From positions 150,104,001 through 150,168,000 of the forward strand of contig NC_086097.1 of NCBI RefSeq assembly GCF_963921235.1: 64,000 nucleotides of DNA, read 5' to 3'. Positions within the stretch are counted from its first letter, which is position 1. The number at the start of each line of letters is the position of its first letter. The translations under genes were made by a program, and so were the position numbers. This document shows positions 6,841 to 63,702 of this stretch, piece by piece. Under the pieces are notes generated by a model. The model was not told where the DNA came from. It did not search any database and worked only from the letters and a program-made list of their open reading frames with translations. The stretch comes from Mobula hypostoma (taxonomy: Eukaryota).

Positions 6841-7624
6841 ATCCCAGTAAGCGTAAGTGCTACACCTGTCCCTACACCTCCTCTCTTGCCACCATTCAGG
6901 GCCCCAAACAGTCCTTCCAGATGAGGCAACACCTCACTTGTGAGTCTGTTGGGGTCATCTATTGCATCCGGTGCTCCCGGTGTGGTCTCCTCTACATTGG
7001 TGAAACCCGACACAGATTGGGGGACCGCTTCGTCCGCTAAAACAGACAGGATCTCCCAGTAGCCACCCACTTCAACTCTGCTTCCCACTCCCATTCAGAT
7101 ATGTCCATACATGGCCTCCTCTACTGCCATGATGAGGCTAAACTCAGGTTGGAGGAGCAACACCTCATATACCGTCTAGGTAGTCTCCAGTCCCTTGGTA
7201 TGAACATAGAGTTCTCCAATTTCCGGTAATTCTCTTCCCCTCCCTTTCCCTATCCCTATGTCACTCTGCCCCCTCCCCCAGCTGCCTACCACCTCCCTCT
7301 TGGTTCCACCTCCTTCTACTACCCATTGTGTTTTCCCCGATTCCTGCTTCATCTTTCCTGCCTATCACCTTCCTGCTTCCTCTCTCCCACCCCTTTATCT
7401 TTCCCCTTACTGGTTTTTCACCTGGAACCTCCCAGCCTTCTCCTTCCCGCCCTCCCCCCACCTTCTTTATAGGGCCTCTGCCCCTTCCCTCTACAGTCCT
7501 GACGAAGGGTTCCGGCCTGAAACGCCGACCGATCTTTTCCACGGATGCTGCCCGACCTGCTGAGTTCCTCCAGCATGTTGTGAGTGTTGCTTTGACCCCA
7601 GCATCTGCAGATTATTTTGTGTTT
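6841..7624 (+). mobile_element. Penelope-like element 3' fragment (GIY-YIG region and terminus) with 10-bp TSD
   Basis: Encodes GVIYCIRCSRCGLLYIGET; pyrimidine-rich 3' region; degenerate hammerhead motif at 7495-7530; TGGATTTCTT at 6831-6840 and 7625-7634. Confidence 0.88.
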
Positions 7625-8419
7625 TGGATTTCTTCTTCTTTTCCTCAGTCAGTCCCATGGGACAGTGGAGGACTTCCTTCCAGTCATTTCTATGGGTTGT
7701 GAAGCAACGGAAGAGGCCAGTGTGGGATCTGTACATTCTGCCACAGAAGATGTCTGCTAGGGGGACTGAATGGTTCGTGAGGTAATAAACTCTTCGATTG
7801 TTTTCACTGGCCTGCTGTATGGTCTTGATGTAGAGATTCGACATTACCTGCTGCATTGCAGCTGCTTGAACACACAAACATATCAGCTATATCATGAAGG
7901 ATCCCAACCACTCTGTTCATGGACTGTTTGTCCCACCCTGATCAGGGGAGAAACTGTGCAGCATTCACACCAGGACCATGGGACTCCAAAACAGTTACTT
8001 CCCCTAAACCATCAGGCTGATCAACACCGCCCCCTCCCAACTAATCATCCCACCGCTACATATACATCATCTAGCATCACTTTGTGTGCATACAATCAGT
8101 CTATGTATATAACAGTAATGTGTATATTTTAGAGGATTTTTTAAAATATTTATGTGTTATTTTTTGTTTTTTAATTGTGTTCTTTATGCTTGTTGTTTTT
8201 TTTTTGTTATGCTGCATTGGACCCAGAGTAACATCCTTTTGTTCCCCCTTTACACTCACGTACAGAAGAATGACAATAAATAAACTTGGATCTGGAATCT
8301 AGGGTCAAGAGTACGCCTCATGTTAGCTCCTCAATTCGATAGGATCATGGCTAATCTCAGCCTCTGTATCCCCATCACCTTTGATCAGTTTTAATGGTCT
8401 TCTTTTTAAAAGTCTATCC

Positions 8420-10955: not shown

Positions 10956-11029
10956 CGTGCTCATCACTGGCTTAAAATTATTCAAAGAATTGTTTTTACT
11001 TACTTTGATGAAGAACGTTTCAAAGACAG

Positions 11030-13100: not shown

Positions 13101-13116
13101 CAGTCATATTATGTGT

Positions 13117-13299
13117 CCAATCACAAACAAAGAAAATCTGCAGATGCTGTAAATCCAAGCAACACACACAAAATGCTGGAGGAACTCAGCAGGCCAGGCA
13201 GCATCTATAGAAAAGAGTAAACAGTTGGCGTTTCGGGTCCAAGACCCTTCGATAGATGTCGCCTGGCCTGCAGAGTTCCTCCAGCATTTTGTGTGTGCT
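13117..13299. mobile_element. Short inverted-repeat Penelope-like insertion
   Basis: PLE terminus on the minus strand followed by its inverted copy; flanks GTCATATTATGTGT (13103-13116) and GTCATGTTATGCGT (13300-13313). Confidence 0.75.
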
Positions 13300-13361
13300 G
13301 TCATGTTATGCGTGTTGCTTTTTGATTTCCAGCATCTGCAGAATTTCGCATGTTTTTATTA

Positions 13362-15819: not shown

Positions 15820-16400
15820 GATAACACACACAAAATGCTGACGGAACTGAACCAGCATCTATGGAAAAAAGTACCGTCGATGTTTTAGGCAGAGACCCTT
15901 CAGCAGGACTGGAGAAAAAAAAGATGAGGAGTAGATTTAAAAGGTGGGGGCATGGGAGAGTGAAACACAAGGTGATAGGTGAAAACTGGAGGGGGGGGAG
16001 TAAAGGATTGGGAAGTTGATTAGTGGAAGAGATACAGGGCTGGAGAAGGGGGAATCTGATAGGAGAGGACAGAAGGCCTTGGAAGAAAGAAAGTGGGGAG
16101 GAGCACCAGAGGGCGACGATGGGCAGGCAAGGAGAAAAGGTGAGAGAGGGAAAAGGGGAAGGGGAATGGTGAAGGGGAAGGGGGTTTTACTGGAAGTTTG
16201 AGAAATCGGTGTTAATGCCATCAGGTTGGAGGCTACCCAGGCGGAATTTTAAGGTGTTGCTCCTCCAACCTGAGCGTGGCCTCATCGCGACAGTAGAGGA
16301 GGCCATGGATTGACATATCGGAATGGGAATGGGAAGTGGAATTAAAATGCATGGCCACTGGGAAATCCAGCTTCTTCTGGTAGACAGAGCGTAGGTGCTG
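15820..16400 (-). mobile_element. Penelope-like element 3' fragment
   Basis: Reverse complement of the PLE endonuclease C-terminus (FRLGSLQPDGINTDFSNF) and terminus; degenerate hammerhead motif at about 15875-15910. Confidence 0.85.
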
Positions 16401-16699
16401 CCCGACTGAAGAGTTTTTTCCAGCATTTTATGTTTCTGTTTTAGATGTCTACCATCGGAAGATTTTTTTGATCCTCTATCGTTGAATATATAGATTGTAA
16501 CAAGATATTTTTAGATTGTTAAGCTTTAAAGAAGAATATATATAACTTTTGCAATCTCTATTTCTGCCTTTTTCATTATTTCTCTTATTGTGCCTGTTAG
16601 CAATTTAATTCACTCACTCTTCTGTGAGTCGTCCCCCTCTTTATTTCTTAGTCCGCCTTATTCAATGCTGAGGGAGTTAACTCTCAGATCTTTTTTAAA

Positions 16700-18630
16700 T
16701 CTCTTCCTTCATGCCTTGTACCTGTGCCCTCTGCAGCCTGGAAAAAAGACCAACCACTATACCCCTCATGATTTCATGATTTTAGTAATTTCTAAGCAGT
16801 CACCCCTCATTCTCCTGCCCTCCAGGGAGTAAAGAACTAGTGTCCCACTATAACTCAGGCCGGGTAGTCCAGGCAGTATCTCAGTAAATGTCTTCTGCAC
16901 CCTGGCTACCTTGACAATGCCTTTCCAATAACAGTGTGATCAAACCTGTGCACAATACTCCCATGCAGCCTCGTCAGTGACTTATATATCTGAAACATTA
17001 TGTCCCTACCCTGAAGCTCCATGTCCTGACTGGTGAAGGCCAACATGCTAAATGCCTTCTTCATCACTCTCTCCATTGACTCAGCTTCTTTCAGTGAACT
17101 ATGCACTTATACTCCCAGGTCCCTCTGTTTCACATCACATGTCAGAGCCCTGCCATTCATAAATCCCACCCTGGTTTGACTGTCCAAAGTGCATCATATC
17201 ACACTTATCTAGAATGAAATTTGTTTGCCATTTCTCAGTGCATCTCCCTAACTGATCCAAATCTATGGAGGGGAATAAACAATCAATATTTTGGGTGAGA
17301 CCCTTCATCAGGACAGGAAAGGAATGGGGAAGAAGCCAGAATAAGAAGGGGATTAAGCAGAACGATAAGAGATAGATGGTGGTTAGGGGACCCGGAATGA
17401 AGTAAGAAGCTAGGATTTGACACCCTCCGCCCCACCCACCTACCTTTCACCTCATCTGGTTTCACCTATCCCCTGTCAGCTTGTACTCCTCCCCCTCCCC
17501 CCACCTTCTTGTCAGGCATAGCACTGCAGAGTGCAGTAGAGTAGAGAAGTCTGGGAATACAGGTCCATCGTCCCTTGAAAATGGCCTCACAGGTAAATAG
17601 AATCATAAAGACAACTTCAGGCTCATTGCCAAAATGTCAAAGTATTGAATACAGGGGTTGGAATGTTATGCTAAAGTTGCGTAAGATGTTGATGAGGCCT
17701 AATTCGGAGTACTGTGTGCAGTTTTGGTCACCTGCCTACAGGAAGGATATGAATAAGATTGAGAGAGCGGGGAAAATTTCCAAGGATGTTGCCGGAACTT
17801 GAGGACCTGGGTTACAGGGAAGGGCTGAATAGGTTAGGATGCTATTCCCTAGAGTGTAGGAGAACGAGCGGAGATCTGATAGATCAAGAGGCATAGAAAG
17901 GGAAAGTGCTAGCAGGCGTTTTCCAGTCGCGCTCAACTAGAGGTCGAGGGTTAAGGGCGAAAAGTGAAATGATTAAGGGGAACAAGAGGGGAAACTTCTT
18001 CACTCAGAGGGTGTGGAAGTGGTGGATGTGGGTTCGATTTCAACATTTAAGGGAAGTTTGGATAGGTACATGGATGGGAGGGGTATGGAGGGGTATGGTC
18101 TGGGTGATGGTCGATGGGACTAGGCAGAATAATAGTTCCACATGGACTAATTGTGATGAAGAACCTGTACCTGTGCTGTAGTATTCTATGACTCTATGAC
18201 TCTATTTCTGGTATCTGCAGAATCTCCTGTATATGATCAAAATCCATTTTCAATTTATTATAAAAACTGCTTCACTATCAACAAGACACCTTAATTTATT
18301 ATCTTCAGCAAACCTACTGATCGTGCTATGTATCCTATCTAGTAACTGACATAATTAATGAAAAACAGAAGGCCCAACGCTGATCCTGGAGCATGTCACT
18401 AGTCACAGGCCTCTAGAGAATCAATCTTTGCCCTCTGCTTCCTAGCATCGAACCAATTGTGAATTGACATTGCTATCTCCCACAGAATCTACAGCAGGGT
18501 AAACTTCCAGATGTGGCTGCCATGCAGGACCTTATCAAAGACCTTACTAAAGTCCAAACAGACAACATCCACTGTCCTAAACTCCAAAAGATTTATCAGA
18601 CATGACTCCCAGCACAAGTCATGCTGACTA
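16700..18630. mobile_element. Cluster of decayed CR1 fragments (about 16700-17260 minus, 17520-18200 plus, 18240-18630 minus) and a PLE end (about 17270-17510)
   Basis: ORF fragments RPNSEYCVQFWSP, GNFFTQRVW, VDVVCLDFSKVFDKV; (CTATGACT) tail at about 18186-18205. Confidence 0.75.
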
Positions 18631-18639
18631 TTGCTGTTC

Positions 18640-26419: not shown

Positions 26420-27885
26420 CTATCTTAGTCCATGTTCCAAACCTACACTGGTATCCGTCCCCCACTCTTCCTATGTTATATCAATGACCGCATTGGTGCT
26501 GCTTCCTGCATCCATGCCGAGCTTGATGACTTCATCAAATTTCTGACACCTCCCTCCCCTTTCTCGACCTCACCTTTTATTGTCTCTGGAGACAGCTTGT
26601 CTACTCGTGTCTATTATAAACTCATGGACTCTCGTAGCTACCTGGACCATACCTCTTCTCATCCTGTTACTTGTTAAAAATGCCATCCCCTTCTCTCAGT
26701 TCCTCCGTCTCCACCGCATCTGCTCTCAGGATGAGGCTTTTCATTCTAGAATGAAGGAGATGTCCTCCTTTTTCAAAGAAAGGAGCTTCCCTTCCTCCAC
26801 CATCAACACTGTTCTCAACCGCATCTCTTCCATTTCACACACGTATGCTCTTACCCCAACCTCCTGCCACTCTACCCTCTTGTGCACACCTACCACCCCG
26901 CCAGCCTCCGTGTCCAGCACGTAATTCTCCACAAAATCCGCCATCTCCAATAGGATCCCACCACCATACACACCTTTCCCTCCCCCCGCCCACATTCTGC
27001 TTTCCGCAGGGATTGCTCCCTATGCGACTCCGTTGTCCGTTCGTCCCTCCCCACTGATCTCCCTCCTGTCACTTATCTTTGCAAGTGGAACAAGTGCTAC
27101 ACCTGCCCCTACACCTCCTCCTCACTACCATACAGAGCCCCAAACAATGCTTCCAGGTGAGGTGACCCTTCACTTGTGAGTCATTTGGGGTCATATACTC
27201 TATCTAGTGCTCTCAGTGTAGCCTCCTGTATATCGCTGAGACCCGTCGTAGATTGGGAGACTGTTTTGCTGAGTACCTACACTCTGTCCACCAGAAGAAG
27301 TGGGATTTCCCAGTGGCCACCCATTTTAATTCTACTTCCCATTCCCATTCTGATATGTCAATTCATGGCCTCCTTTACTGTCGCAATGAGGTCACACTCA
27401 GGTTGGAGGAACAACACCTTATATTCCATCTGGGTAGCCTCTAAGCTGATGGCATGAACATTGATTTCCTGAACTTCCGGTAATGGCCCCCACCCCACCC
27501 TCATCCCTTCACCATTCCCCATCCCCTTTTCCCTCTCTCACCTTATCTCCTTGCCTGATCATCGCCTCCCTCTGGTGCTCTTACCACCCCCCCCCCGTTC
27601 TTTCTTCCATGGCCTTCTGTCCTCTCCTATCAGACTCCCCCTTCTCCAGCCCTGTATCTCTTTCACCAATCAACTTCCCAGCTATTTACTTCATCCCTCC
27701 CACTCCTGGTTTCACCCATCACTTTGTGTTTCTCTCTCCCCCTCCCTCACATTTTTATATCTACAGCTCATCTTTTTTTGTCCAATCCTGCCGAACGGTC
27801 CCGGCCCGAAACGTCAACTGTACTCTTTTCCATAGATGCTGCCTGTCCTGCAGAGTTCCTCCAGCATTTTGTGTGTGTTGCTCAA
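26420..27885 (+). mobile_element. Penelope-like element (RT fragment, Cys linker, GIY-YIG, terminus), degenerate
   Basis: YIND (YIDD-like), YYKLMDS..YLD..SSHP, AIPFSQFLRLHRICS, LEEQHLIFHLGSL; degenerate hammerhead motif at about 27785-27820. Confidence 0.88.
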
Positions 27886-39137: not shown

Positions 39138-39138
39138 G

Positions 39139-41304: not shown

Positions 41305-42157
41305 GGGTCGTGGAAAGTAGTAGGGGGAGGAGGGGGGAGGCTGGATTCCATGATATGCTGAGCGATACAATATATTAGTTAAAGTAACTGATAAAAGGAT
41401 TGGAGGAGAGGTGAAGAAAATCAGATTAATGCGGAGAGTGCCAGTAGGAGCCTAAACGTTCATCGGAGTTGGGTAGGGAGATGAAGTGGGGCAAAAAAAG
41501 CCTAATCAAGTCAGAAGAAAATAGTTCTCATTAAAAATAGTTCTGATTAAGGCAGTGTAATTATTTGAGATCATGGAGGTAGCCTTTGATGGAGTTTATA
41601 GTCAAAATTATTAACAAGTAAACTGAAGCCAAATTCTGGGAGTGGGGGTTGCATTTGAACAGATTATGAAGAAATAATGACAAGGAAAAAGAAGAAAAAA
41701 ATTGAGAGTAAGTAGATCAACTCTGTACCAACAAATAAGGGACTTTAACTCATGAGGGAAAGGAAGATGCTGAAGAACATGGTGGAAGAAAGATAAAACA
41801 GTGATCAGTGAAATTAGTTATCAGCAGTTTCAAAGGAAGAGCTCAGTGGAGTGAAATCACCTCCAAATACCCACTAAACAAAGACAAGATTTAAAGGGAT
41901 AGTCTCCTGGAGGGAGGAAAGTCAAAGAAGAAACAGTTGGGCAAAACTTTTACTTTTTTTCGTTGGAAGAACAGAAAGTTTCATCATTTTAGTTACTACT
42001 AGTGAAGCATGATACCTTTGTGTTTTTTAAGGAAAAAGAAGCAAATGACAAGAAACTTACTTTCCTTGATTTCTTTGCCCTTCTAAAATGTGGGAAACAA
42101 GATTCAGGTGAAAATCGTAAAGGATTCTGAAGTGGACTAATTCAAAACCACAATTAA

Positions 42158-42398
42158 GTTTGCATCATTTGGTACAAAAAGATTGAAGAGGGCAAAATTA
42201 TGTGAAGCTCATTAACTCTATTAGTTACTCAAACTTTCTGCAACCCTTTAAGATCCCACCCCTATATTCATTGACTAATCCCCTTGTGTTAAGACTGATA
42301 ACATTTAATCATCATGCAAATGTTGATTGTCTTCTGAGAAAACAACTCTGGCAGCAGTCTGTTGGTGTGGCTCCAGTACTATGCTCATTGATTAGCAT
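42158..42398 (+). promoter_or_regulatory. Putative foxh1 proximal promoter/5' region with octamer motifs
   Basis: Perfect ATGCAAAT at 42314-42321; GTTTGCAT at 42158-42165; ATTAGCAT at 42391-42398 next to Sox-like CATTG. Motif match only. Confidence 0.3.
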
Positions 42399-42834
42399 GA
42401 GAATGAGCTGGGAAGTTGAAGGATATGGGATGTTTCCAGCACCGTCTCCAGGAATAGACGAGGGTAATGTTCACCTACCGGAGCAAGACTGGGATAATGC
42501 AGCAGGTCCTTCTCTGCAACTGTGCTCTCCTGTTCAGAGTAATTCTTCAGCTCAAGTTCTGCACTTGCAAACTCTGATGGATGCTTCTAGGATGGAACAG
42601 ATCTCTGATGTTGCAACTGTTGATGTCAATGACAAGTTACAGATATCAAATCAGACACAAGATAAAATGGACCCTAACTCTGCAGAAGACTATGAAGAAA
42701 ATACAGGAAGTGGGTCTAAACAACGAGTGAAGAAAAAGAATTACCAAAGATACCCTAAACCACCTTATACTTATCTTGCTCTTATAACCATTGCAATCCT
42801 TAACTCTCCAGAGAAGAGACTGAAGTTATCCCAG
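42397..42834 (+). CDS. foxh1: Forkhead box H1 (FAST-1)-like, coding exon 1 (146 codons; start ATG 42397 or 42403)
   Basis: Ends [35 protein letters not shown], the FoxH1-specific start of the forkhead domain; phase-0 donor CAG|GTACTG at 42835. Confidence 0.9.
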
Positions 42835-42936
42835 GTACTGCTTTATATAACCATATTTCAGTCATTTTAAATGTTGAGGCAATCTGACTGGTTTCCAAAT
42901 ATAACAAACTGGTTAAGTGTACTTTATGTTTTACAG

Positions 42937-43041
42937 ATTCTCCATGAGATCAGTGTCATGTTTCCATTTTTCAAAGGGAATTACAAAGGCTGGAAAGATT
43001 CTGTCAGGCACAACTTGTCTCAAAATGACTGCTTTATCAAA
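42937..43041 (+). CDS. foxh1: Forkhead box H1-like, coding exon 2 (105 nt)
   Basis: Acceptor tgttttacag|; [35 protein letters not shown]; donor |GTAAGT; 102-nt intron 1. Intron positions match those I recall for vertebrate FOXH1. Confidence 0.93.
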
Positions 43042-44849
43042 GTAAGTCTGCTTCTATCTGTTGGTGGTAATTCCAACCATACTGTAAAACACACTGGAGG
43101 CCAGTGAGTAATTGAAAGGAATTTGTTTGTGTTTGTTCTTTGAGCACGGAACAGATTGGGAAGAGCTGGGCTTCATGTTGGTTGGAATTTTGTTTTTACT
43201 AGGAAAGATTTAACAGTGCCTATATGTGGCCTTTTGATTCTGAGACCACTGGAGGTGTGATTCTTTAAAAATCAGTGGAAAAGTCATGGAAAAATAATTA
43301 CTGTACATTTTTTAAGTGTTTGGTTGATGATTCTGGGACTGAATCGTTGGCAGTGAATGAACAAGGGGAGAATTTTGTGGTGCAGAGATGTGTAGAAGAA
43401 AGGGGTATATATTGCTTAGGAACCTCTGTAGCTGTTTAGAAAAATTACAATTGACTAGAGGAGAAACGTATACAAAAAATTTAGAAACTTAAATAACAAG
43501 AGGAATCTTCCACTCAGTGAATACAACATTCCTGCAGAATTTTTTTTGTTGTGGGAGGTAGAAGTTTCTGTGTTGTTTCATGAATTTCTTGGGTCTTGTT
43601 AATTTTTAAGTTGCCTGAAGCTTATTCAATAGATTTCATTGCATTGTGTAACATGCTATATGACTGAGTCTATATATATGTATTTTTAATTAAAAAAAGT
43701 TAGGAATTTACTGTTTAAATCATCAGCATCAGATTTATTATCACTAACATTATTCTGTGGCAGCAGTATATTGCAAAGACAAAAATTACAGAAGTAAACA
43801 ATGCAAAATGAAAGAAACAATGAGGTGGTATTCATGGACTAATAGTGGAGGGAAAGATAATCCTAAATTGTCTTCGGCCTCCTGTACTTCCTACCTGATG
43901 GCAGTAATAAGAAGTGGGCATGTACCAAATGGTGTATCTTTTTAGTGATGGATGCTGTCCTCCTTTCTGACTGTGTGAATGTGTTGGGCCCACGATAGAT
44001 CTTCAGAAGTGTTGATGCCCACAAACTTGAAGCTGATCCCTCTTTCCACCACTGACCTCTTAAGGACTTGTGTCTCAGTTTTCCTTCTGGGACTGCCATC
44101 TGTTTATTACATGAATACAGAGGTGTTCAGTCAGTAGTGAGGTTGTGGCATGCAATGCATGCTGGGATACTGAGTTTTGAACTGAGTTTTGAGCACAAAT
44201 GTTGCGGAACAATCATGTAGAAATGTAACATCTCAAACTAGTTTCAATGTGACAGTGAGGAGAGCTGTCTTGGAGAAAGATACCAGCTTAATTAAATTGT
44301 CAAACCTTGATCTTATGACAGATCTCCTTCAGGGCCTGCTGTCCTACCAACGTTAATCATTATCCTGGCCCTTTTCCTTCACCTAACCAATAAGTTCTGC
44401 AAACTCTGATGCTCTTAACACCTCCCCACCACCTCACTTCCCTTTCCACAGTCAACCTACTTTTCTTCACACATTCCATATAGAACAATGTTGTCTTTTG
44501 AGCTGCTGAATTTTGTGGAGATGAGAAAGGGTCTGGTGGCCGAGGACTGGTAGCCGAACATACACGGGCAATTTGATGCTCCAATTGGAGCATAAACCGC
44601 TTATCAAGAAAATGGATGACATGGGAGGTACTGCAGATGCTGGAAATCTGGAGCAGCACACATAATGAGCTGGAGGAGCTCAGCAGGACAAGCAGCATGG
44701 GAATAAACAGTCAACATTTCAAGCTGAGACCCCACCATCATACGCAGGCATCTTTTTTCTCTTTTTATTCCCCCCTTCACTCCGTACTGAGCAGGAGGTG
44801 TGCTTGAATATACGCCGGAGAGGTGCTGGAGGCAAGAACAGTTGCAACT

Positions 44850-45504: not shown

Positions 45505-46389
45505 CAATGTCATCCCCTTCTCGCAATTCCTCTGTCTCCGCTGCATCTGCTCTCAGGATGAGGCTTTTCATTCCAGGACGAGGGAGATGTCCTTTTTTTA
45601 AAGAAACGGGCTTCCCTTCCTCTGCCATCAACCCTGCTCTCAAACTCATCTCCCCCATTTCAAGCACGTCTGCTCTCACTCCATCCTCCTGCCACCCCAC
45701 CAGGAATAGGGTTCCCCTGGTCCTCACCTATCACCCCACCAGCCTCTGGGTCCAACATATTATTCTCCGTAACTTCCGCCACCTCCAACGGGATCCCACA
45801 ACTAAGCATATCTTTCCCTCTTCCCCCCTCTCTGCTTTCCGCAGGGATCGCTCCCTACGCGACTCCCTTGTCCATACTTGCACCCCCCCCCCATCCCTCC
45901 CCACTGATCTCCCTCCTGGCACTTAGCCTTGTAGACGGAACAGGTGCTACACATGCCCTTACACTTCCTCCCTTACCACCATTCAGGGCCCCAGACAGTC
46001 CTTCCAGGTGAGGCAACACTTCACCTGTGAGTCGGCTGGGGTGATATACTGCGTCCGGTGCTCCCGATGTGGCCTTCTATATATTGGCGAGACCCGACGC
46101 AGACTGGGAGACCGCTTTGCTGAACACCTATGCTCTGTCCGCCAGAGAAAGCAGGATCTCCCAGTGGCCACACATTTTAATTCCACATCCCATTCCCATT
46201 CTGATATGTCTGTCCACGGCCTCCTCTACTGTAAAGATGAAGCCACACTCAGGTTGGAGGAACAACACCTTATATTCTGTCTGGGTAGCCTCCAACCTGA
46301 TGGCATGAACATTGACTTCTCAAACTTCCACTAATGCCCCACTTCCCCCTCATACCCCACCCGTTATATATTTATATACACACATTCTT

Positions 46390-46427
<38 letters not shown>

Positions 46428-46755
46428 TTTTCTCCCTCTGTCCCTCTCACTATACCCCTTGCCCATCCTCTGGATTTCCCCCCCCGGCTTGTCTTTCTCC
46501 CTGGGCCTCCTATCCCATGATCCTCTCATATCCCCTTTGCCAATCAACTGTCCAGCTCTTGGCTCCATCCCTCCCCCTCCTGTCTTCTCCTATCATTTTG
46601 GATCTCCCCCTCCCCCTCCCACTTGCAAATCTCTTACTAGCTCTTCTTTCAGTTAGTCCTGACGAAGGGTCTCGGCCCGAAACGTGGACTGTACCTCTTC
46701 CTGGAGATGCTGCCTGGCCTGCTGCGTTCACCGGCAACTTTGAGTTGTGTTGCTT
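45505..46755 (+). mobile_element. Penelope-like element with open GIY-YIG endonuclease domain
   Basis: 46008-46334: HFTCESAGVIYCVRCSRCGLLYIGETRRRLGDRFAEH...VATHF...LEEQHLIFCLGSLQPDGMN; (CT)n at about 46390-46425; hammerhead motif with a GUG triplet at 46655-46690. Confidence 0.93.
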
Positions 46756-47270: not shown

Positions 47271-47450
47271 TTCCAGATTTCCAGACTTCCAGCCCTGATT
47301 GCCACATCTCCACCAAGTGCATCGAAATGCAGCTCCTTGGAGACCGTGTTGCAGGTGTTGAAGCTACAGCTCGATGACCTTTGGCTTGTTAGGGAAAGTG
47401 AAGTGGTGATAGACACACCAGGGCTACAGGAGGCAGATTAATGGGTGACT

Positions 47451-47878
47451 CAAACACAAGGAAATCTGCAGATGCTGGAAATTTAAGCAACACACACACA
47501 CACAAAATGTTGGTGGAATGCAGCAGACCAGACTTTTTTTTTCTCTCTGTCCCTCTCACAATTGCTCCTTGCCTGCTCTCCATCTTCCTCTGGTGCTCCC
47601 CTCCCCCTTCCTCCCTAGGCCTCCCGTCCCATGATCCTCTCCCTTCTCCAGCCTTGTACCCCTTTTGCCAATGAACCTTCCAGCTCTTGGCTCTATCCCT
47701 CCCCCTCCTGTCTTCTCCTATCATTTCAGATCTCCCCCTTCCCCTTTCAAATCTCTTACTATCTCTGCTTTCAGTTAGTCCTGACGAAGGGTCTTGGCCC
47801 GAAACGTCGACTGTGCTTCTTCCTATGGATGCTGTCTGGCCTGCTGCGTTCCACCAGCATTTTGTGTGTGTTGCTTTG
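47451..47878. mobile_element. Inverted Penelope-like insertion with 10-bp TSD
   Basis: ATGGGTGACT at 47441-47450 and 47879-47888; minus-strand terminus followed by a plus-strand terminal fragment. Confidence 0.88.
47777..47812 (+). ncRNA. Minimal type I hammerhead ribozyme motif, intact core
   Basis: AGTC-CTGACGA-A-GGGTCTTGGCCC-GAAA-CG-TC^GACT: helix I AGTC/GACT, core CUGAnGA and GAAA, palindromic ACGT helix III, predicted cleavage after C47808. Confidence 0.8.
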
Positions 47879-50275
47879 ATGGGTGACTGTCAGGAGAGCG
47901 AAGGGAGAATGTCAGATAGTGGAAAGCCCCGTGTGACCATCCCCCTCAACAATAAGTTCTCCATTTTGAGTACTGTTTTGGGGGGGGGGGTGGAAGGGGG
48001 CAGAATCCTATCTGGGGGAGCCAACAGTGGCCATGCCTCTGGCACTGAGTCTGGCCCTGTGGTTCAGAACGGCAGATAACTGAAGGGAATGGCAGCAGTA
48101 ATGGAGGACTATAGTTAGGAGGAAAGACAGGTGATTCTGTGGATGCAAAAAGGAAACACGGATGGTAGTTATCTTCCCAGGTGCCAGGGTCTGCGGTGTT
48201 TCTGAATGCGTCCGCGATAACCTGAAAAGGGAGGGTGAACGGCCAGATGCTGCGGTACATATCGGCATCAATGACATGGGTAGAAAAAGGGAAGAGGTCC
48301 TGAAAACAGAATACTGGGATTTGGGAGGGAAGCTGAGAAGCAGGACCTCAAGGTTGGTAATCTGCCTGTGTCATACAACGTTGAGGATGGGGATAGACAG
48401 AGGGGGTAGATAGATGTGTGCCTGAAGAATAGGAGTGGGGTCAAGGATTCAGATTTATAGAACATAGAACAGTACAGGCCCTTCGGCCCACAATGTTGTG
48501 CTGACCCTTAATCCTTGCCTCCCATATAACCCCCCACCTTAAATTCCTCCGTAAACCTGTCTAGTAGTCTCTTAAATTTCTGGATCATTGGGACCACTTA
48601 TGGGGCAAATGTGACCTATACAAAAGGGATGGGCTGCATTTGAATCCAAGAGGGACCAATATTCTTGCGGGCAGGTTTACTAGAGCTGTGGGGAGTGGTT
48701 TAAACTAATATGGCAGGGGGATGGGAACCAGTATGATGGAGCTGAAAATGAACCAACAGGTTTACAAGTAGATGATGGATGTAATATGAATGTAAGGAAG
48801 GACAAGCCAATGATTGGGTACAAATGCAGACAGACCAAAGAGTTAAATTTGAGCATAGAGACAAAATTCCAAAAGAGCGAAGAATGCAGGACTGAAGGTG
48901 CTGTATTTAAATGCGCATAGCATTTGGAATAAGGTGGGTAAGCTTAGTAGCACAGTTAGAGAATGGTCCATATGTCGTTGTGGGCATCACAGTCGTGGCT
49001 GAAAGAAAGCCATAGTCGGGAGTGTTAACATCAAAGGATGTACTTTGTATAGAAAGGACAGGCAGGAAGGCATTGGCAGTGGTGTGGCTCTGTTGGTAAG
49101 AGATAGAATTACATCATTAGAAAGAGGTGACAGGGTCAGAGAATGTTGAATCTCTGAGGGTGGATTTAAGAAACTGCAAGGGTTTTTTAAAAAAAAAAGA
49201 AATACAATTATAGGATTCATATGGGCTTCCAAATAGAAACCAAGGTGTGGGTGAGGTTGAGATTGTAAAGGGAGCAGGAAAGGGCATGTAGTAAAGGTGA
49301 TGTCATAATAGTAATGGGGGACTTCAATATGCAAAGAGGTTGGGAAAATCAGGTTGGTGTCAGATTGCAAGAGGAAATTTGCTGAATGCACATGAAATGG
49401 CTTTTTAAGAGGAGCCTGTGCTCGACAATGGGAAAGGCTATATTAGTTTTGGTGTGGTGTAGTAACACAGATTTTATTAGCTTAATGTAAAGTAACCATT
49501 GGGAGGCAGTGATTCATACTGCAATTTGAGAGGGAGAAGCATCACACGTATCAGTATTGTAATGCAAGACAGAGCAGAGATTGAAGCTTTTGGGAAGATG
49601 TGGGTGGGGTTGAGATTGCAAAGGGAGCAGGATAGATATGTCCCACAGAGGAAGACGTTTTCAAATGGCAGGGATAGGCAACCATAAACTGACAAGGACT
49701 GCATAAAAGCCAAGGAAAGGAAGCAAAAGTGAGTGGGAAGTTGGATGATTAGGAAGCTTTTAAAATCCAACAAAAGGCAACTAAAAAAAGCTATAAGGGA
49801 AAAGATGAAATGAGGGAAAACTAACTGATGATATAACACAGGATACTTAAGACTTCCGTTATATAAAGAATAAAAGTGAGGGGTGAGTTGATATTGGACC
49901 ACTGGAAAATGATGCAGGTGAGGTAGTAATGGGGGACAAAGAAATGGCAGTTAAACTTAATGGGTACTTTGCATCTGTCTTCACTGTGGAAGACACTAGC
50001 AGTGTTTCAGAGGTCATGAGTAGCAGGAGTGAGTGCTATTGCTATTACAAAGGAAAAAGTGCTAGGCGAACTGAAAGGTCTTAAGGTGGATAAATCACCT
50101 GGATCAGATGGACTACATCCCAGAGTACTGAAAAGGATTGCTGAAGAGATGATGGGTGCATTGGTCATGTTTTTTTAAGAGTCACTTGATTCTGGTATGG
50201 TCCTGGGGTACTGGAAAATTGCAAATGTCACTCCATTCTAAGAAGGGAGGAAGACAAAAGAGGTACTTGTAGGCC

Positions 50276-50763
50276 TTGTATTCCGTCTGGGCAGCCTCCA
50301 ACCTGATGGCATGAACATTGACTTCTCTAACTTCCACTAATGCCCCACCTCACCCTCGTACCCCACCCGTTATTTATTTATATACACACATTCTCCCTCC
50401 CTCCCCCTCCCTCCCCGCCTCTGACTATACCCCTTGTCCATCCTCTGGGCTTCCCCCCTCCCCCTTTTCTTTCTCCCTGGGCCTCCTATCCCATGATCCT
50501 CTCATATCCCCTTTGCCAATCAACTGTCCAGCTCTTGGCTCCATTCCTCCCCCTCCTGTCTCTTATCATTTTGGATCTCCCCCTCCCCCTCCCACTTTCA
50601 AATCTCTTACTAGCTCTTCTTTCAGTTAGTCCTGATGAAAGGTCTCGGCCCAAAACGTCGACTGTACCTCTTCCTAGAGATGCTGCCTGGCCTGCTGCGT
50701 TCACCAGCAACTTTGATGTGTGTTGCTTGAAATTCCAGCATCTGCAGATTTCCTGGTGTTTGC
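50276..50763 (+). mobile_element. Penelope-like 3' fragment with 11-bp TSD, inside CR1
   Basis: ACTTGTAGGCC at 50265-50275 and 50764-50774; hammerhead motif with GAAA changed to AAAA at 50628-50663. Confidence 0.9.
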
Positions 50764-51454
50764 ACTTGTAGGCCATGAGCCTAACCTCAGTGGTTGGGAA
50801 AGTGTTGGAATCCATTAGTAAAGATGAGATTTCAGGGTACTTGGAGACTAATGATAAAACCAGTCAAAGTCAGCATAGTTTCTGTAAAGGGAAATTTTGC
50901 CTGGAAAAATCTGTTAGAATTCTTCGAGGAAGTAATTAGCTGGGAGGACAATAGATGTCATTTACTTAAATTTTCAGAAGGCATTTGATAAGGTGCCTCA
51001 CATGAGGCTGCTTAACACCATAGGATTTTATTTTGTTACAGGAAAGATATTGGCCCGAATAGAGGAATGGCTGGCAGTGAGTGTGAATAAAGGGGTCCTT
51101 TCCTGGTTGGCTGCTAGTAACTAGTGATGTTCCTCGGGAGTCAGTATTAGGACTGCTACTTTACACATTGTTTGTCAATGAATTAGATGGTTGAATTGAT
51201 GGCTTTGTGGCAAAATTTGCAGATGATATGAAGATAGGTGGAGGGGTAGTGCTGAGGAAGCAATGTGATTGCAACAGGACTTGGTCAAATTGGGGAAAAT
51301 GAGCAAAAAATGACAAATGGAATACAGTGTTGGGAAACGTATGATGCATTTTGGTAAAAGGACTATCTAAATGGGAGAAGATTCAAGCATCAGAGGGGCA
51401 AAGGGACTTGTGCAAGGTTGAGTCTGTGGTAAAGAAGGTAATTGAAATAAATGC

Positions 51455-51678
51455 AACACACATCAAAGTTGCTGGTGAATGCAGCAGGCCAGGCAGCATC
51501 TCTAGGAAGAGGTACAGTCTAGTATTAGCTCTTCCTTCAGTTAGTCCTGACGAAGGGTCTCGGCCTGAAACGTCGACTGTACCTCTTCCTAGAGATGCTG
51601 CCTGGCCTGCTGCGTTCACCAGCAACTTTGATGTGCGTTGCTTGAATTCCAGCATCTGCAGAATTCCTCGTGTTTGCG
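51455..51678. mobile_element. Short inverted Penelope-like insertion with 15-bp TSD
   Basis: AATTGAAATAAATGC at 51440-51454 and 51679-51693; inverted arms of about 65 bp. Confidence 0.9.
51543..51578 (+). ncRNA. Minimal type I hammerhead ribozyme motif, intact core
   Basis: AGTC-CTGACGA-AGGGTCTCGGCCT-GAAA-CG-TC^GACT. Confidence 0.75.
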
Positions 51679-53089: not shown

Positions 53090-54200
53090 GAAGTGTTAGA
53101 TCTGCCCATTCACCACCTCCTTACCCTTATTCAGGGCTCCAAAAGTCCTTTCCATTGAGGCAACACTTCATCTGTACATCTGTTGGAGTTGTCTACTATA
53201 TCCATGTTCCTGATGTAGATTGGGGGGCTGCTTTGTTGAGTGCCTTTGCTTCATCCACAAAAAGCAAAATTTCCCAGTGGCCAGCCATTTCATTTCCAGT
53301 CCCCATTCCCATTCTGACGTTGGTCTTGGCCACCTCAATGGCCACGATAAGGCCACTCTCAGGTGAGAGGAGAAACATATGAGATGTATGTAATTATTAT
53401 TGATGTGGACTTTAGCTTATATTGGTCTCCAGTTTTCTTGTTGCTGATTAGCGAATGAGCAGTCTGTTTTTTGGGTGAGGGAGGGGTTCTCTGTTTGATG
53501 TTACTGTTGCTGTTTTTGTTTGAGGCGCTTAGGGGTTAGAGCTTTGATGTTTTGGCTGCTGGGTCTGGGTGGGCAATCTGTTAGTTTTTGTGTGCAACTG
53601 AGTTTGGGGTTTGTGAATCTTGTTTCTTTTTACTTTGTGTGGGAGAGGGACCTCACAACTTCCATGGTTTCTCTGTATTTCATGGCGATCTGAAGAGGAC
53701 ATCTCAGTTGTATTCTGTGTGCATACTTTGATAATAAAATGAACCTTTGCAACACCTCATACTCTGGGTAGCCTCCAACCTGTTGGCATGAGCATTGATT
53801 TCTCGAACATCCTTCCCTTCCCTCATCAATTCTGCACTCTTACTACTTGCCATTTCTCTTCTCACATTTCTATCTTCACTCCTGATGCTCCCCTCTCTCC
53901 CATGGTTCACTCTCCTATTAGATTCCTTCTTCTCTAGCCCTTAACTTTTCCACCTATCACCTCCCAGCTTCTTACTACTTCTCCCCCTTTCCCCACCCAC
54001 CTGGCTTCACCTATCACCTTGTATTCCTTCCTCTCCCATCCTATTCTGGTTTCTCCCCTGCCCCCCCCCGCTTCCTTTTCAGTCATGCAGGAGGGTCTCA
54101 ACCCAAAATCTCAACTGTTTATTCCTCTTCCTAGATGATGCCTGAGATTTTGGGTGTTGCTTTGGATTTTCAGCATATACAGAATTTCTCGTGTTTATAT
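53090..54200 (+). mobile_element. Decayed Penelope-like element, interrupted at about 53380-53745
   Basis: RQHFICTSVGVVYYI and caacacctcatactctgggtagcctccaacc; eroded terminus. Confidence 0.75.
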
Positions 54201-56507: not shown

Positions 56508-57278
56508 CTCTAAACGTGACCTCTCACGTTAAGCCCATGCCACCCCATGCGTGTGATGGTAGGCAGGGATATACTGCAGACTTCGACTCTCTGTGCCATA
56601 TGCCTTCCTCGTAATTTTTGATACCTCTATTAGACCATCCCTTGGCCTCTGCATTCCAGGAAAGCAAAACAAAACCTCTTCTATCCAGTCTCCTTCTAAC
56701 TGAAGTGCTACATTCCAGGCAAAGTCTCAATGACTGAAGCCTCGGGTAAGTCTGTTTTGAGTTGGAGCACTGAACTACTGAGTTCCTCCAGCATTTTGTG
56801 TGTTGCTGTGTGTTTCCAGCATCTGCAGATGTTCTCATGTTTGTTGCCCTAACCAGGTCTCTTACCAAATATCAGGGTATGTATCTTGTAGGCTCGGAGA
56901 TGCAAGAGACGACAAATGTCAGAACCTGGAACAAAAACAAGCTGTTGGAGGAACTCAACATATTCAGCAGAATCTTTGTGGGTGGCGGGTAAGAATTGTC
57001 AGTGTTTTGGGTCAAGACCCAACACCCTGACTGAAAGTGCACATTTGTGAAACAATTATTCCACCACACCCACCCCTCTTAACCCCAACAGATGCTGCTT
57101 GATTTAGTGAGTTCCTTCTGCAATTGTAGTCTTGTTCTTTAATCTGCCTCATCCCTATTGGGGTCATTGTGCTTTCCTTTCTCTGCCACTGATCACCTTG
57201 TCCTTCCGTCCCCAATTTGCAATACTTGGCCATTTTCCATTCTTTCTGAAATTGTTGGTAGAACATAGAAAATATATT

Positions 57279-57763: not shown

Positions 57764-58864
57764 TACATGTATGCAATTCTGCACATATATGCACTGTTGA
57801 ATGTTATGTCCTGCAAGTGCTGCAGGCACACACTACCTCCTAAACAGAACTGCTTAATTGATGTTTCTTGGGTTTATTAGTATTCCAAGTTTGTGTCAAA
57901 TGTCTGGGTTCCCATGTCTGATTTTAACAGTGTGCTGAAAATGCTGTTAGGCAGGAAATGTAGATTTTCATCTGGCAATAATTGTAATATCAAACTGCTT
58001 TGCGAATTTTTTTCCTGAGCCAAGAACTGGGTGTTGACTGCCAACATGAAATCCATCTTTGTTTGGAAACGAAATAGTACACCCTAAGTGGTGTACGTAC
58101 TTTTTCTGAAGTTGGTATGACTTAATCCACTGAAGTAATCAATAAAGTCCTTTAGAAGCTTGAATGTTGTATAGTGAAATGAACAAAAATAACACAACAG
58201 CATTATTCAGCACGGTTGTCTGTAGGTGGAGCCAAAGTAAATGGGTGACATTTTTAATGAGAATTTTTCTTCAATTTTTACTGTGGGGGAGGGAATAATG
58301 GAAGCTAATGAAAAAAGGAAATGAATGTTTTCTTGGATCACACAAATTAGCAGAGTGGATGTATTGGAGACTTGTGCAACCAGGTGACTGTTGAAGATCA
58401 TATTTTTCTTGTTCACTTGTGTATTCACCTTGGTAATGCTAAAATAGCTGTCTGTGCCTTTAAGAGAAAATGCTGATGTCATTTTGCATGGGTGGAGTAG
58501 AATAAAGAGCTGCCATGTTCTAGAAAGGACGACATTCGAATGCTTTTCCCAGGTTTGGTGAGGACAGATTTTCGGGAGTAAAATTGATCGACACTGGAAT
58601 AGTGTGATTGTGAAGTTCCTTAATCAGCCTACTAGTGTGAGCGAGGAGAACTCCTTTCAATGTCTAGCCTGCGTGTGTTTGGAAGTTAAGCACATGTGCC
58701 AAATAATTGCCACTACCATATTGGATTTGTACGTATATTTTGTTTTAGTTGCATACATAATAAGGGTGTGGTTCAAAGTTAAACTGTGATCGTAATAGCG
58801 GGCAACACACATCAAAGTTGCTGGTGAACGCAGCAGGCCAGGCAGCATCTATAGGAAGAGGCGC

Positions 58865-58900
58865 AGTCGACGTTTCCGGCCGAGACCCTTCGTCAGGACT
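58865..58900 (-). ncRNA. Minimal hammerhead ribozyme motif (left arm of palindrome)
   Basis: Reverse complement of 58985-59020. Confidence 0.7.
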
Positions 58901-58984
58901 AACTGAAGGAAGAGTGAGTAAGGGATTTGAAAGCTGGAGGGGCTCCTCCAGCTTTCAAATCCCTTACTCACTCTTCCTTCAGTT

Positions 58985-59020
58985 AGTCCTGACGAAGGGT
59001 CTCGGCCGGAAACGTCGACT
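58985..59020 (+). ncRNA. Minimal hammerhead ribozyme motif (right arm of palindrome)
   Basis: AGTC-CTGACGA-AGGGTCTCGGCCG-GAAA-CG-TC^GACT; core intact, mismatch at the base of helix II. Confidence 0.7.
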
Positions 59021-59294
59021 GCGCCTCTTCCTATAGATGCTGCCTGGCCTGCTGCGTTCACCAGCAACTTTGATGTGTGTTGCTTGAATTTCCAGCATCT
59101 GCAGAATTCCTGTTGTTATCGTAATAGCGGGAACTGTTTTTTTAACTTGCCCTTTTTATCTTGACACCCTCTTCCTGCAATAAACAGACAAAGGAATTTA
59201 AGACCTGAAAAAGTATTTGTTGTCTTGCATGTGTGTTTTTCCCGAGGCTACATATATGAAGATGGATCAAACAACGTGGCCTGACCTGGTGCAT

Positions 59295-61020
59295 CAGTCA
59301 TAGACAAGTACAGTGCAGGAACAGGCCCTTTGTCACAGCTAGTCTGTACCAAACCATTTAGATTGTCTACTCCCTTCAACCTGCACCAGAACCATAGCTC
59401 TCTATACCCTACCACCCATGCACTTATCCAAACTTCTCTCAAACGTGGAAATCGAGCTTGCTTGCAGTACTTGTGCTGACAGCTGATTCCACACTCTCGT
59501 GACCCTTTGAGTGAAGAAGCTTCTGCCACTTAAGCTTTTCACCTTCCACCCTCAACCCATGACCTCTGGTTTCAAATATTTAAACTACATTTATCATCAC
59601 AAAGTATGTATAAATTATACAGCATTGATTTGTCTGCTTACGGGCAGCCATCCCACAAGAAACCTGAAAGAATCCAATTTTAAAAAAAACACCCAATGCA
59701 CAGAGAATGGAAAAAAACACAAATCGTGCAAACAATAGAAGACAGCAATAGCATTCCAAACCAAATTGAGTCCTTGGATCCAAATCCCCAAGCAGGCCCA
59801 AAGCCTCGGACTCAATTCATCATATTAGTGGGGCAGTATTCTGCAAAGCTCACAGACATGAAGCACAGCAGCCAGGGCAGTCTCGCAGCCTCAGTGCGAA
59901 ATCAGCCTGACCCTTGCCTCAGTGTGTCTTGCCTGATATTGCTGAGACCAAATTTGGAGTATTGTGTGCAGGCAACGACACACTGCAACAGCAGGTTGTG
60001 CCCTGCATTAGGACTGGGTCCCTGCCTCAGCCTTAAGCTCTGGGCCTAGACCTTGCCGCCTGACCTGAAGCAGTTCCCAAGCTCTCCTAATCGACTTGGT
60101 GCTTAGAACGATCCAACCTCACACCCAGTTAGTTGGAGGGGCATGGAAACTCATCTGCCTTGACACTTCTCCAAATCGCTCACTCTAACTCCATCTGCAA
60201 ACCCATCCTGAACACGTTGCACTTCAGTTTTGTAACACCACCACCACAGCTCATCCCTCCAATCAGACCCAGCAACCTCTTGTAAATTTTCTCTGCAATC
60301 TTCCAACCTTATTCACAACTTTCCTGCAGGCAGATGACCAAACTGCACACAATACTCCAAATTTGGCCTCAGCAATGTCTTAAACTTCAACATAACATCC
60401 CATCTTGTATGCTCACAGTTTGATTTGTGCAGGCAAATGTGCCAAACGCTTTCTTTACAACCCTATCTACCTGAGATGCTACTTTCAATGAATTATGGAT
60501 CTGTATTCCTATATCACTTTGTTCTTCCACATCCTCAGTGCCCTATCATTTACTGTGTAAGACCTACCCTGGTTGGTCCTTCCAAAGTGCAAAGTCTCGC
60601 ACTTGTCTGCGTTAAATTCCATCTGCCGTTCTCCAGCCTATTTACCCATCTGCTCCGGATCCTGCTACAAGCCTTGATAACGTTCCTCAGTGTCCACTAC
60701 AATACCAATTGTGTCATCTGCAAATTTGCTGATCCAGTCAACCAGATTATCATCCAGGTCGTTGATATAGTTGACAAACAACAACAGACACAGCACTGAT
60801 CCCCACTGTGCTCCACTAGTCGCAGGCCTCTACTGCCACTCTCTTGCTTCTCCCACAAAGCCAATGTCTAATCCAATTTACTATCTTGAATGCTGAGTGA
60901 CTGAACCTTCTTGACAAACCTCCATGTGGGACCTTGCTAAAGTCCATGTAGACAATGACGCCTTCATCAACTTTCCTGGTAACTTCCTCAAAAAACATTC
61001 GGATTGGATGGACATGACCT
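59295..61020 (-). mobile_element. Decayed CR1 (about 59295-59570 and 60270-61020) split by another LINE-like tail
   Basis: FFEEVTRKVDEG..VYMDFSKVPH; tgcaaatttgctgatcc (ISKFA); 3' tail near 59300. Confidence 0.75.
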
Positions 61021-61067
61021 GGTTAGCTATGAAAATTTGCAGGGACTCAGCTAGCCATGTGGATTGA

Positions 61068-61163
61068 CTGTACTTTTTTTCATAGATGCTACCTGGCCTG
61101 CTGAGTTCCTCCAGCATTTTGTATGTGTTGCTCAGATTTCCAGCATCTGCAGACTTTCTCTTG
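61068..61163 (+). mobile_element. 96-bp PLE terminal fragment with 12-bp TSD
   Basis: CATGTGGATTGA at 61056-61067 and 61164-61175. Confidence 0.85.
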
Positions 61164-62001
61164 CATGTGGATTGAGGACTGGCAAATGGTTTTTTTATTC
61201 GAATAAATGCGTTGTATTTTGTATGCCAAAGTATTGCATTGTGGGTACAGCTTGTTTAGCAAGTGATAGGGCCCCTGAGGAGTGTTGTGGAACAGAGGGA
61301 CCTATGAGAGCAAGAGCATGGCTCAGTGACAGTGGTGTCACAGGTAGATAGGGTGGTGAATAAGGGTTTTGGCATGCTGGCTTTCATCAGTCATAAGGCT
61401 AAGTATATGAGCTAGAAAAAATGCAGTAATGACTTACCAAGATGTTGACTGAACTTGACAGCCTGAGTTGCACAGGTTTGATTAATTTAAGACTTTATTT
61501 CCTGGAGGTAGAGAATAAAGGGTGACATGATAAAAGGCCACAGACAAGGCAACATTACATACAGTAGTCTTCCTCCTGGGGGGGGGGTGGTAATTAAAAA
61601 TGAGGGCATGGATTTAAGAGCAGAGACAAGAGATTCATTTAAAAAAAAAGAACATTAGGAGCTGCTGCTTCATGCAATAAATTATTCCTTTTTTCTTTTG
61701 AGCTGCCAGGAATAGTGGTTGAGACAAATAGCAACATTTAAAAGCAATAACCCTATGTATCCTCTTGCAGTCCTATGCATTGTTAGTGAATGACGCATAT
61801 TCTTCAGTACACAAGAACGAGTAGCATATGAAAAAATTTTGTACCATTGTACCTGTTGCACTGTTGAATCATTAGGTTCCACATGAAAGGTTTGACTAGG
61901 TCACTTCGGTGATTAAACTATAAATATTCAGCACCTTCTATGGTAAACTGAAACAACTGGGTCAATATGTGGCTTCAAAGCCAAATATTTATCTTCACTT
62001 T

Positions 62002-63702
62002 AAAAACAAACACGAGGAAATCTGCAGGTGCTGGAAATTCAAGCAACACACACAAAATGCTGGTGAATGCAGCAGGCGAGGCAGCACCTATTGGAAGAGG
62101 TACAGTCAACGCTTCGGGCTGAGACCCTTCATCAGGACTAACAAAGAAGAGATAGTAAGAGATTTGAAAGTGGGAGGGGAGGGATGGAGCTAAGAACTGG
62201 AAAGTTGATTGGCAAAAGGGATACAAGGCTGGAGAAGGGAGAGGATCATGGGATGGGAGGAGAGGAACACCAGAGGAAGATGGAGAGCAGGCAAGGAGTT
62301 GTAGTGAGAGGGACAGAGGGAGAAAAATAAGAAATAGGAAAAAAATAATAAAGAAGGAATGGGGTAAGAAGGGGAGGAGGGGCATTAACAAGTCAATGTT
62401 CATGCCATCAGGTTGGAAGCTACCCAGACAGAATACAAGGTGTTGTTCCTCCAACCTGGGTGTGGCTTCATCTTGACAGTAGAGGAGGCCATGGATAGAC
62501 GTATCAGAAAGGGAATGGGACGTGTGACCACTGGGAGATCCTGCTTTCTCTGGTGGACAGAGCGTAGGTGTTCAGCAAAACGGTCTCCCAGTCTGCGTCG
62601 GGTCTCGTCAATATACTGAAGGCCGCACTGGGAGCACCGGACGCAGTATATCACCCCAGCCGACTCCCGACTCACAGGTGAAGTGTCGCCTCACTTGGAA
62701 GGACTGTCTGGGGCCCTGATTGGTGGTGAGGGAGGAAGTGTAAGGGCATGTGTAGCACTTGTTCTGCTTACAAGGATAAGTGCTGAGAGGGAGATCGGTG
62801 GAAAGGGATGTGGGGGGGGGGGGAATTCGCTGAACACCTACGCTCTGTCCACCAGACTTTCATCTCTCTTCCCCCCCCCCATCCCTTCCCACCGATCTCC
62901 CGCCCAGCACTTATCCTTGTAAGCAGAACAAGTGCTACACATGCCCTTATACTTCCTCCCTCACCACCATTCAGGGTCCCAGACAGTCCTTCCAGGTGAG
63001 GCGACACTTCACCTGTGAGTCGGCTGGCATGATGTACTGCGTCTGGTGCTCCCGGTGCGACCTTCGATATATTGGCAAGACCTGAAGCAGACTGGGAGAC
63101 TGTTTCGCTGAACACCTACCTTCTGTTCACCAGAGAAAGCAGGATCTCCCAGTGGCCACACATTTTAATTCCACATCCCATTCCCATTCTGACATGTCTA
63201 TCCACGGCCTCCTCTACTGTCAAGATGAAGCCACACTCAGGTTAGAGGAACAACACCTTATATTCTGTCTGGGTAGCCTCCAACCTGATGGCATGAACAT
63301 TGACTTCTCTAACTTCTGCTAATGCCCTTCCTCCCCTTCTTGCCCTATCTCTTATTTATTTTCCCTTTTTCTCTTTTTTTCTCCTGTCCCCCTCTCACTA
63401 ACTCCTTGACTGCTCTCCATCTTCCTCTGGTGTTCCTCTCCTCCTATCCCATGATCCTCTCCCTTCTCCAGCCTTGTATCCCTTTTGCCAATCAACTTTC
63501 CAGCTCTTAGCTTCATCCCTCCCCCTCCTGTCTTCTCCTATCATTTCGGATCTCCCTCTCCCCCTCCCCCTTTCAAATCTCTTACTATCTCTTCTTTCAG
63601 TTAGTCCTGACAAAGGGTCTCGCCCCAAAACGTCGACTGTGCCTCTTCCTATAGATGCTGCCTGACCTCTTGCGTTCCACCAGCATTTTGTGTGTGTTGC
63701 TT
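62002..63702. mobile_element. Large inverted-repeat Penelope-like insertion (about 62005-62822 minus; 62860-63700 plus) with 16-bp TSD
   Basis: GIY-YIG region on both arms; TATTTATCTTCACTTT (61986-62001) and TATTTATCTTTACTTT (63703-63718); degenerate hammerhead motifs at 62104-62139 (minus) and 63603-63638 (plus). Confidence 0.92.

Follow-up and report, generated by a model that had tools for sequence, protein, structure and literature searches.

In a 64,000-nt stretch of the genome of the ray Mobula hypostoma (contig NC_086097.1, positions 150,104,001 to 150,168,000; hereafter the window), a 36-nt motif recurs which is, with high probability, the minimal hammerhead ribozyme of a Neptune-type Penelope-like element (PLE). 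On this reading the window holds the motif in 12 5'-truncated, decaying insertions, and on a transcript of a full-length parent element two copies of it would be likely to join by their ACGU palindromes and to cleave weakly after GUC, probably helped by the element's protein.

A preliminary description of this DNA had listed the motif at 15 sites, and the family proved to be present at every one of them. The 36-letter pattern gives 10 sites with three mismatches or fewer, against none in 100 shuffles, and a gapless scan recovers 13 of the 15 listed sites at their given coordinates (27785 really being 27784). By using a profile built from the window copies, 13225(-) and 17285(-) were recovered with E values of 4e-32 and 7e-07, the best of 10 shuffled windows reaching 0.009. 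The full pattern is not carried by all 15, however, as 13225(-) begins within the core and lacks CUGA. Beyond the listed sites, the profile scan adds four further degraded motif copies and several element-end pieces without the motif, and by hand-set intervals about 17% of the window is assigned to this family. Because three inverted pairs carry two listed motifs each, the 15 motifs represent 12 insertions. A very large genomic copy number of the family is plausible. Sequences from public runs were compared as contigs (17 runs in the run search); those from four runs matching 50250-50800 number 4,673, 8,420, 4,608 and 36,655, which is not a copy number and shows no RNA ends.

The assignment to the hammerhead class relies on the published consensus and on relatives of the element. 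The motif fits the consensus for minimal hammerheads of PLEs (CUGANGAH-G..C-GAAA-palindrome-UH; PMC4209133, supplement Fig. S3), with a palindromic helix III devoid of a loop, an extra base after A9 and the pair G10.1-C11.1, and the majority letters of the 13 in-register window copies give the complete core, CUGANGA, GAAA and UH in order. A helix-requiring descriptor for minimal type I hammerheads, of the kind advised in the preliminary description for a genome-wide search, accepts three window copies (47777, 51543 and 39650) and nothing in 20 shuffled windows. Related loci were taken as the best 80 of 515 endonuclease loci in metagenomes, plus 2 in prokaryote assemblies: L081, which was retained, and L082, which matched only weakly and was set aside; no relative was found in a viral collection. 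The strict descriptor matches 15 of the 64 related loci with enough downstream DNA, with no match on the opposite strand and 0/1280 in shuffles. A core-like motif lies no more than 330 nt from the endonuclease in 41/66 related loci (opposite strand 1/66, shuffles 10/660), and although pairing was not required of these 41, helix I pairs in 33, helix II in 39 and both in 32, compared with 0/11 among control matches. In an alignment of 13 hand-picked motifs (2 from the window, 11 from related loci), 91.5% of cells are paired and 32 two-sided changes occur, neither value being reached in 500 shuffles; slid registers pair at most 36.7% of cells, and the number of pairs with a two-sided change is reached by 86/500 shuffles. 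Helix covariation across related PLE families, named beforehand as a test that the hammerhead reading had to survive, was thereby found, and it upholds, along with the consensus fit, the claim of a minimal type I hammerhead whose ACGU helix III can pair only between two copies. Across lineages the exact catalytic letters are fixed while the helix letters swap in pairs. One locus, L017, whose endonuclease is 46% identical to that of the window, carries letter for letter the Acropora digitifera Neptune motif of Table S1 in PMC4209133. The prokaryote-assembly locus L081 (564-956) stands on a contig filed in a bacterial metagenome-assembled genome and encodes an endonuclease of animal type, followed after 99 nt by a minimal hammerhead; the contig is likely host contamination.

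The host element can be recognised from its coding part. The motif is carried on the sense strand and follows, at a distance of about 290 nt, the stop codon of a frame that encodes a cysteine (Cys) linker and a GIY-YIG endonuclease, the latter scoring above the Pfam cut-off; as judged from the copies of the 3' repeat, this is a terminal-repeat position after the endonuclease gene. The nearest named proteins to the window endonuclease are from rays, with 95% and 87% identity, and continue into motifs of the reverse transcriptase and thumb, for which matches occur at 26430-27885 as well. The order of a reverse transcriptase followed by a C-terminal GIY-YIG domain with CCHH residues was recovered, with only the end of the reverse transcriptase retained in the window, and the linker cysteines and CCHH residues are invariant in 19 aligned related proteins. 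Between the two domains the window element has a CX2-5CxxC zinc-finger-like linker, which occurs in 104/116 proteins carrying the endonuclease motif. Craig and others described this Cys linker as a mark of Neptune and Nematis, present also in Naiad endonucleases (Craig et al., 2021; PMC8557442). The linker motif, with that wider occurrence, and the relatives bear out the earlier assignment, and they support, at the level of sequence, a Neptune-type PLE. Since no window piece extends upstream of position 520 in the 886-position profile, all window copies are 5'-truncated. At least four subfamilies are present among them, about 19%, 31% and 42% apart over the 3' region. The features are as follows.

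7495-7530 (+): motif copy with U16.1 lost, in the 5'-truncated element 6837-7624, long end.
13223-13251 (-): motif remnant that starts within the core, no CUGA, in an arm of the inverted insertion 13119-13359.
15875-15910 (-): motif copy with A6 and G12 changed, in element piece 15823-16403.
17281-17315 (-): degenerate motif copy with G12 changed.
26430-27885 (+): longest element piece, with reverse transcriptase end, thumb, Cys linker, GIY-YIG and 3' repeat, and with frameshifts and stops.
27784-27819 (+): motif copy with A6 and G10.1 changed, short end.
39553-41305 (both strands): single inverted insertion within a target-site duplication, the long end on the minus arm and the short end on the plus arm.
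39650-39685 (-): motif copy with intact core, C15.2 changed to U.
41204-41239 (+): motif copy with cleavage triplet GUG.
45927-46334 (+): open frame for the Cys linker with GIY-YIG endonuclease, part of element piece 45506-46754.
46655-46690 (+): motif copy with cleavage triplet GUG, short end.
47777-47812 (+): sole flawless motif copy, predicted cut after C47808, in the plus arm of the inverted insertion 47448-47876.
50628-50663 (+): motif copy with G12 and G10.1 changed, in solo piece 50274-50763 with long end and duplication.
51445-51519 (-): inverted arm without core, its 5' end exactly at the predicted cut site.
51543-51578 (+): motif copy with intact core, G-U at 10.1-11.1, long end.
54081-54116 (+): degraded copy of an older subfamily, absent from the original list of 15 sites.
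58865-58900 (-): motif copy with intact core, G-G at 10.1-11.1, in the short-end arm of the inverted insertion 58802-59117.
58985-59020 (+): motif copy identical to 58865, in the long-end arm of the same insertion.
61066-61167 (+): solo end piece flanked by a 12-bp duplication, its start within 2 nt of the predicted cut site.
62104-62139 (-): motif copy with A15.1 changed, in the long-end arm of the inverted insertion 62005-63702.
63603-63638 (+): motif copy with G8 and G12 changed, in the short-end arm of the same insertion.

At 56931-57035 (-) there is also a degraded motif relative, whose letters suggest a long rod and not a hammerhead; a second weak end piece adjoins it on the opposite strand.

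The state of the copies points to decay. Hammerhead numbering is used throughout, and the effects of single core changes (except at C3, G8 and G12) are general background on the ribozyme. All core letters, U16.1 and H17 are kept in 5/15 copies (39650, 47777, 51543, 58865 and 58985), with 47777 the only flawless one, given the mismatched or wobble pairs at 10.1-11.1 in 51543 (G-U) and in the 58.9 kb pair (G-G). The preliminary description had named 47777 and 51543 as the best cores: both cores are indeed intact, but 51543 has its wobble and three other copies are also core-intact. Its reading of GUG at 41204 and 46655 was confirmed by the sequence, and C47808, after which it had placed the cleavage, is residue 17. 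Among the 13 in-register copies, CpG positions deviate from the majority in 21/130 cases versus 13/338 elsewhere (p 2.7e-5), and core positions are changed in 11/156 versus 23/312 at non-core positions (p 1.0), the core not being spared. Changes that follow CpG decay, at a rate no lower in the core than outside it, show the window copies to be decaying neutrally after insertion; in contigs of the four public runs, the CpG sites of the motif are likewise often C-to-T or G-to-A. We infer that the window copies are relics, passengers of insertion. The insertions at 40084-41305 and 45506-46754 start within about 3 nt of the same element position and both have GUG; they have only one exclusive column in common, and the sister arm at 39650 has GUC. 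No C-to-G change at 3% or more was found in contigs of the four public runs (50250-50800). Over 139/139 nt the two arms of 58802-59117 agree exactly, which would fit either a young insertion or arm-to-arm conversion; the arms at 62-63.7 kb differ by about 10%.

The anatomy of the insertions separates the ribozyme from the formation of the element end. With element ends placed by eye, guided by the duplications and by where similarity is lost, the distance from the predicted cut to the element end in 14 copies is 67-70 nt in six and 98-104 nt in six, two copies having deletions; the earlier statement that the motif lies about 100 nt from the end therefore holds for the second group of six, but not for the others. 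With the cut site lying 67-70 or 98-104 nt inside, the ribozyme would not make that end. Of seven inverted pairs examined, all but the 13.2 kb pair stand between shared words of 12-18 letters, and the duplication scores of these six are reached by 2/296 random pairs. The target-site duplications measure about 11-15 bp. One short-end arm is joined to one long-end arm in 6/7 pairs, and the combination of inverted 5'-truncated partners, optional tail and target-site duplication was likewise found in 6/7. By this anatomy, the short and long ends correspond to the known optional tail of PLEs; in the anole element, two internal start sites of reverse transcription give two end points (PMC11167929). 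MicroRNA-like Rfam matches at 58.9 and 62.8 kb were rejected as junctions of inverted arms.

As several insertions are only 70-320 nt long, the short copies might be thought to form a separate non-autonomous family, retrozyme-like or resembling short interspersed nuclear elements, instead of truncated element ends. Such families have precedent, since retrozymes devoid of long terminal repeats (non-LTR retrozymes), with type I hammerheads derived from PLE end repeats, were described in one cartilaginous fish (bioRxiv 10.64898/2026.07.22.740005). Those retrozymes, however, form tandem arrays, whereas self-comparisons of the window show dispersed and inverted copies only, with no head-to-tail array of hammerhead units, and the window copies run on into the endonuclease gene. 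The pieces moreover range continuously up to 1.45 kb with scattered 5' ends, and short and long copies have the same two 3' ends, which makes a separate family very unlikely.

Breakpoints at the cut site bear on how efficiently the ribozyme works. Two short arms begin at the predicted scissile bond, 51519(-) exactly and 61066(+) within 2 nt, and this, with a core and helices kept between distant lineages, would be expected if the ribozyme cut efficiently in vivo and the cut RNA were a regular template, cleavage shaping a share of insertions. Against this, two short-arm breakpoints out of 11 to 14, in a span of about 130 nt, coincide with the site (p 0.03-0.10, post hoc), and the remaining ones are scattered from -74 to +45 around the cut site. 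For the anole element PAc it was published that RNA reads neither start nor stop at the cut site and that dead mutants remained able to insert (PMC11167929), and 8/9 frog hammerhead dimers did not cut, 1/9 doing so (bioRxiv 10.64898/2026.07.22.740005). Efficient cutting is therefore judged unlikely, and that these two arms are DNA copies of ribozyme-cut RNA is equally doubtful. If they were, a very abundant ray family would record germ-line cutting by minimal Penelope hammerheads, so far unseen in RNA data.

Several points weigh against an active, dimeric ribozyme. By nearest-neighbour energies, the double hammerhead reaches -14.7 kcal/mol versus -33.9 for an inactive duplex, the monomer favours a rod in which the core is buried by pairing to the cleavage triplet (-11.9 versus -7.9 kcal/mol for an open core), and folding z-scores run from -1.3 to +1.0. 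Neither a full-length element nor a same-strand repeat pair of one element was found in the window, so the dimer context is only assumed. The 41 related motifs are not independent cases, as many loci belong to one family, and the aligned set was, as said, picked by hand. The Rfam hammerhead models, also proposed as a check in the preliminary description, detected no hammerhead family in the window, whether at the gathering threshold or with E values allowed up to 10, and so lend no support; this miss is expected of a motif that lacks helix III. Finally, a change of A6 in the core, outside any CpG, is common to two separate insertions of one subfamily, 15875-15910 (-) and 27784-27819 (+), a hint that the source element of this subfamily may have spread with a damaged core.

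The favoured inactive rod and the shared A6 change would also fit a motif that in this lineage is a non-cutting cis element, such as a protein-binding, promoter or splice signal, with the hammerhead shape kept by descent. The 70-100 nt after the motif are likewise conserved between subfamilies, and Naiad elements are widespread with no canonical hammerheads, as described in PMC8557442. Nonetheless, fixed catalytic letters with helix letters swapping in pairs across lineages are what selection on catalysis predicts, and other members of the class were shown to cleave (PMC4209133; PMC11167929), so that a purely non-cutting role is regarded as improbable. On this modelling, the unfavoured active fold of a weakly cutting hammerhead would agree with the published low dimer activity, the need for a protein and the dispensability for insertion: dimers of PLE minimal hammerheads have low activity (PMC4209133), and cleavage in PAc, the one PLE studied together with its protein, is aided by that protein and is not needed for insertion in vitro (PMC11167929).

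For a weakly cutting hammerhead, the following course is proposed. A full-length parent would bear a repeat at each end, and the two motifs on one transcript would pair through their ACGU palindromes; the paired motifs are predicted to cut weakly after GUC, probably with help from the element protein. As suggested by the literature, reverse transcription would start inside the RNA at two nearby sites, 70 or 100 nt past the cut, and priming on both target strands would yield the inverted pairs. Two such internal starts would account for the short and long ends, with the ribozyme not the maker of the element end. By this geometry, copying that starts 70 or 100 nt beyond the cut would leave nearly every truncated insertion with the motif as a passenger.

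The minimal hammerheads published for the pseudo-LTRs of metazoan PLEs (Cervera and De la Pena, 2014; PMC4209133) have in common with the window motif the core, the extra base after A9, G10.1-C11.1, the palindromic 15.2-16.2, a short helix I, a U-rich 5' side and the occurrence mostly as single copies in truncated elements. The window motif differs in that its helix II, of 4 bp, stands at the short end of the published range, and the portion of the Fig. S3 alignment that was compared has no shark or ray entry. If the window were typical, its density of three descriptor-passing copies per 64 kb would exceed the 4,000 copies of coelacanth and 9,000 of Xenopus reported per genome (PMC4209133). 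The Poseidon element PAc of Anolis carolinensis (Frangieh et al., 2024; PMC11167929) is similar in having a hammerhead near the end, a cut site inside that end and two end points separated by a tail of 30-40 nt. PAc, however, belongs to the Penelope/Poseidon clade and has its gene start in ribozyme stem II, while the window linker is Neptune-type; a gene start just after the window motif was considered and rejected, because that region has no likeness to the N-terminus of related proteins. Endonuclease-bearing PLE insertions (PMC8557442; Arkhipova et al., 2013, PMC3846280) show the same 5' truncation, inverted 5'-truncated partner, one-end tail and target-site duplication, although duplications in rotifers are 8-10 bp and the partial tandem arrangement described there is absent from the window.

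The surroundings of the copies were also inspected. Two forkhead exons lie within 42187-43042 (+), the first matching FoxH1 best and the second giving no match alone. A search with short motifs found no next forkhead exon downstream, and an intron may therefore contain the copies between 46 and 63 kb. The exons, at about 42.7-43.0 kb on the plus strand, and an intron that 47777 and 51543 may share invite the idea that some copies were co-opted by the host, for instance to cut the pre-mRNA of the FoxH1-like gene. This is extremely improbable: the core is not spared among window copies, 47777 and 51543 stand 3.8 kb apart with a wobble at 10.1-11.1 in one, and the structure of the FoxH1-like gene is not established. 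An 849-residue frame with endonuclease and reverse-transcriptase domains occupies 30454-33003 (+), and many similar fragments of long interspersed nuclear elements fill much of the window.

A pyrimidine tract and AG abut helix I in 15 of the 17 copies listed. A splice acceptor at this place, as in a Drosophila virilis intron, was considered and dropped, since the AG belongs to helix I, the whole 3' region is pyrimidine-rich and the motifs of related loci do not show tract and AG as a rule. No clean GT..AG joint was found among 15 of 44 contig joints; one joint lands on AG. In older subfamilies the stop codon (27480 and 7226) coincides with a GT that resembles a splice donor, and helix I has the pyrimidine tract and AG. 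A single contig joint spans these two places (window 50334-50626), and the ray gene model P0005 leaves the element directly after the same residues.

The hammerhead class, the dimer model and the insertion structure are already published, and the window adds a host lineage to the class of 2014. The literature searches listed no work centred on this motif in rays or sharks, but one preprint describes hammerhead retrozymes in a cartilaginous fish (bioRxiv 10.64898/2026.07.22.740005), and Luense et al. (2016) may include sharks or rays. For the in vivo role of Penelope hammerheads, the use of so dense a family would be statistical: with its many dated insertions, both 5' breakpoints at the cut site and subfamilies that spread with a damaged core can be counted.

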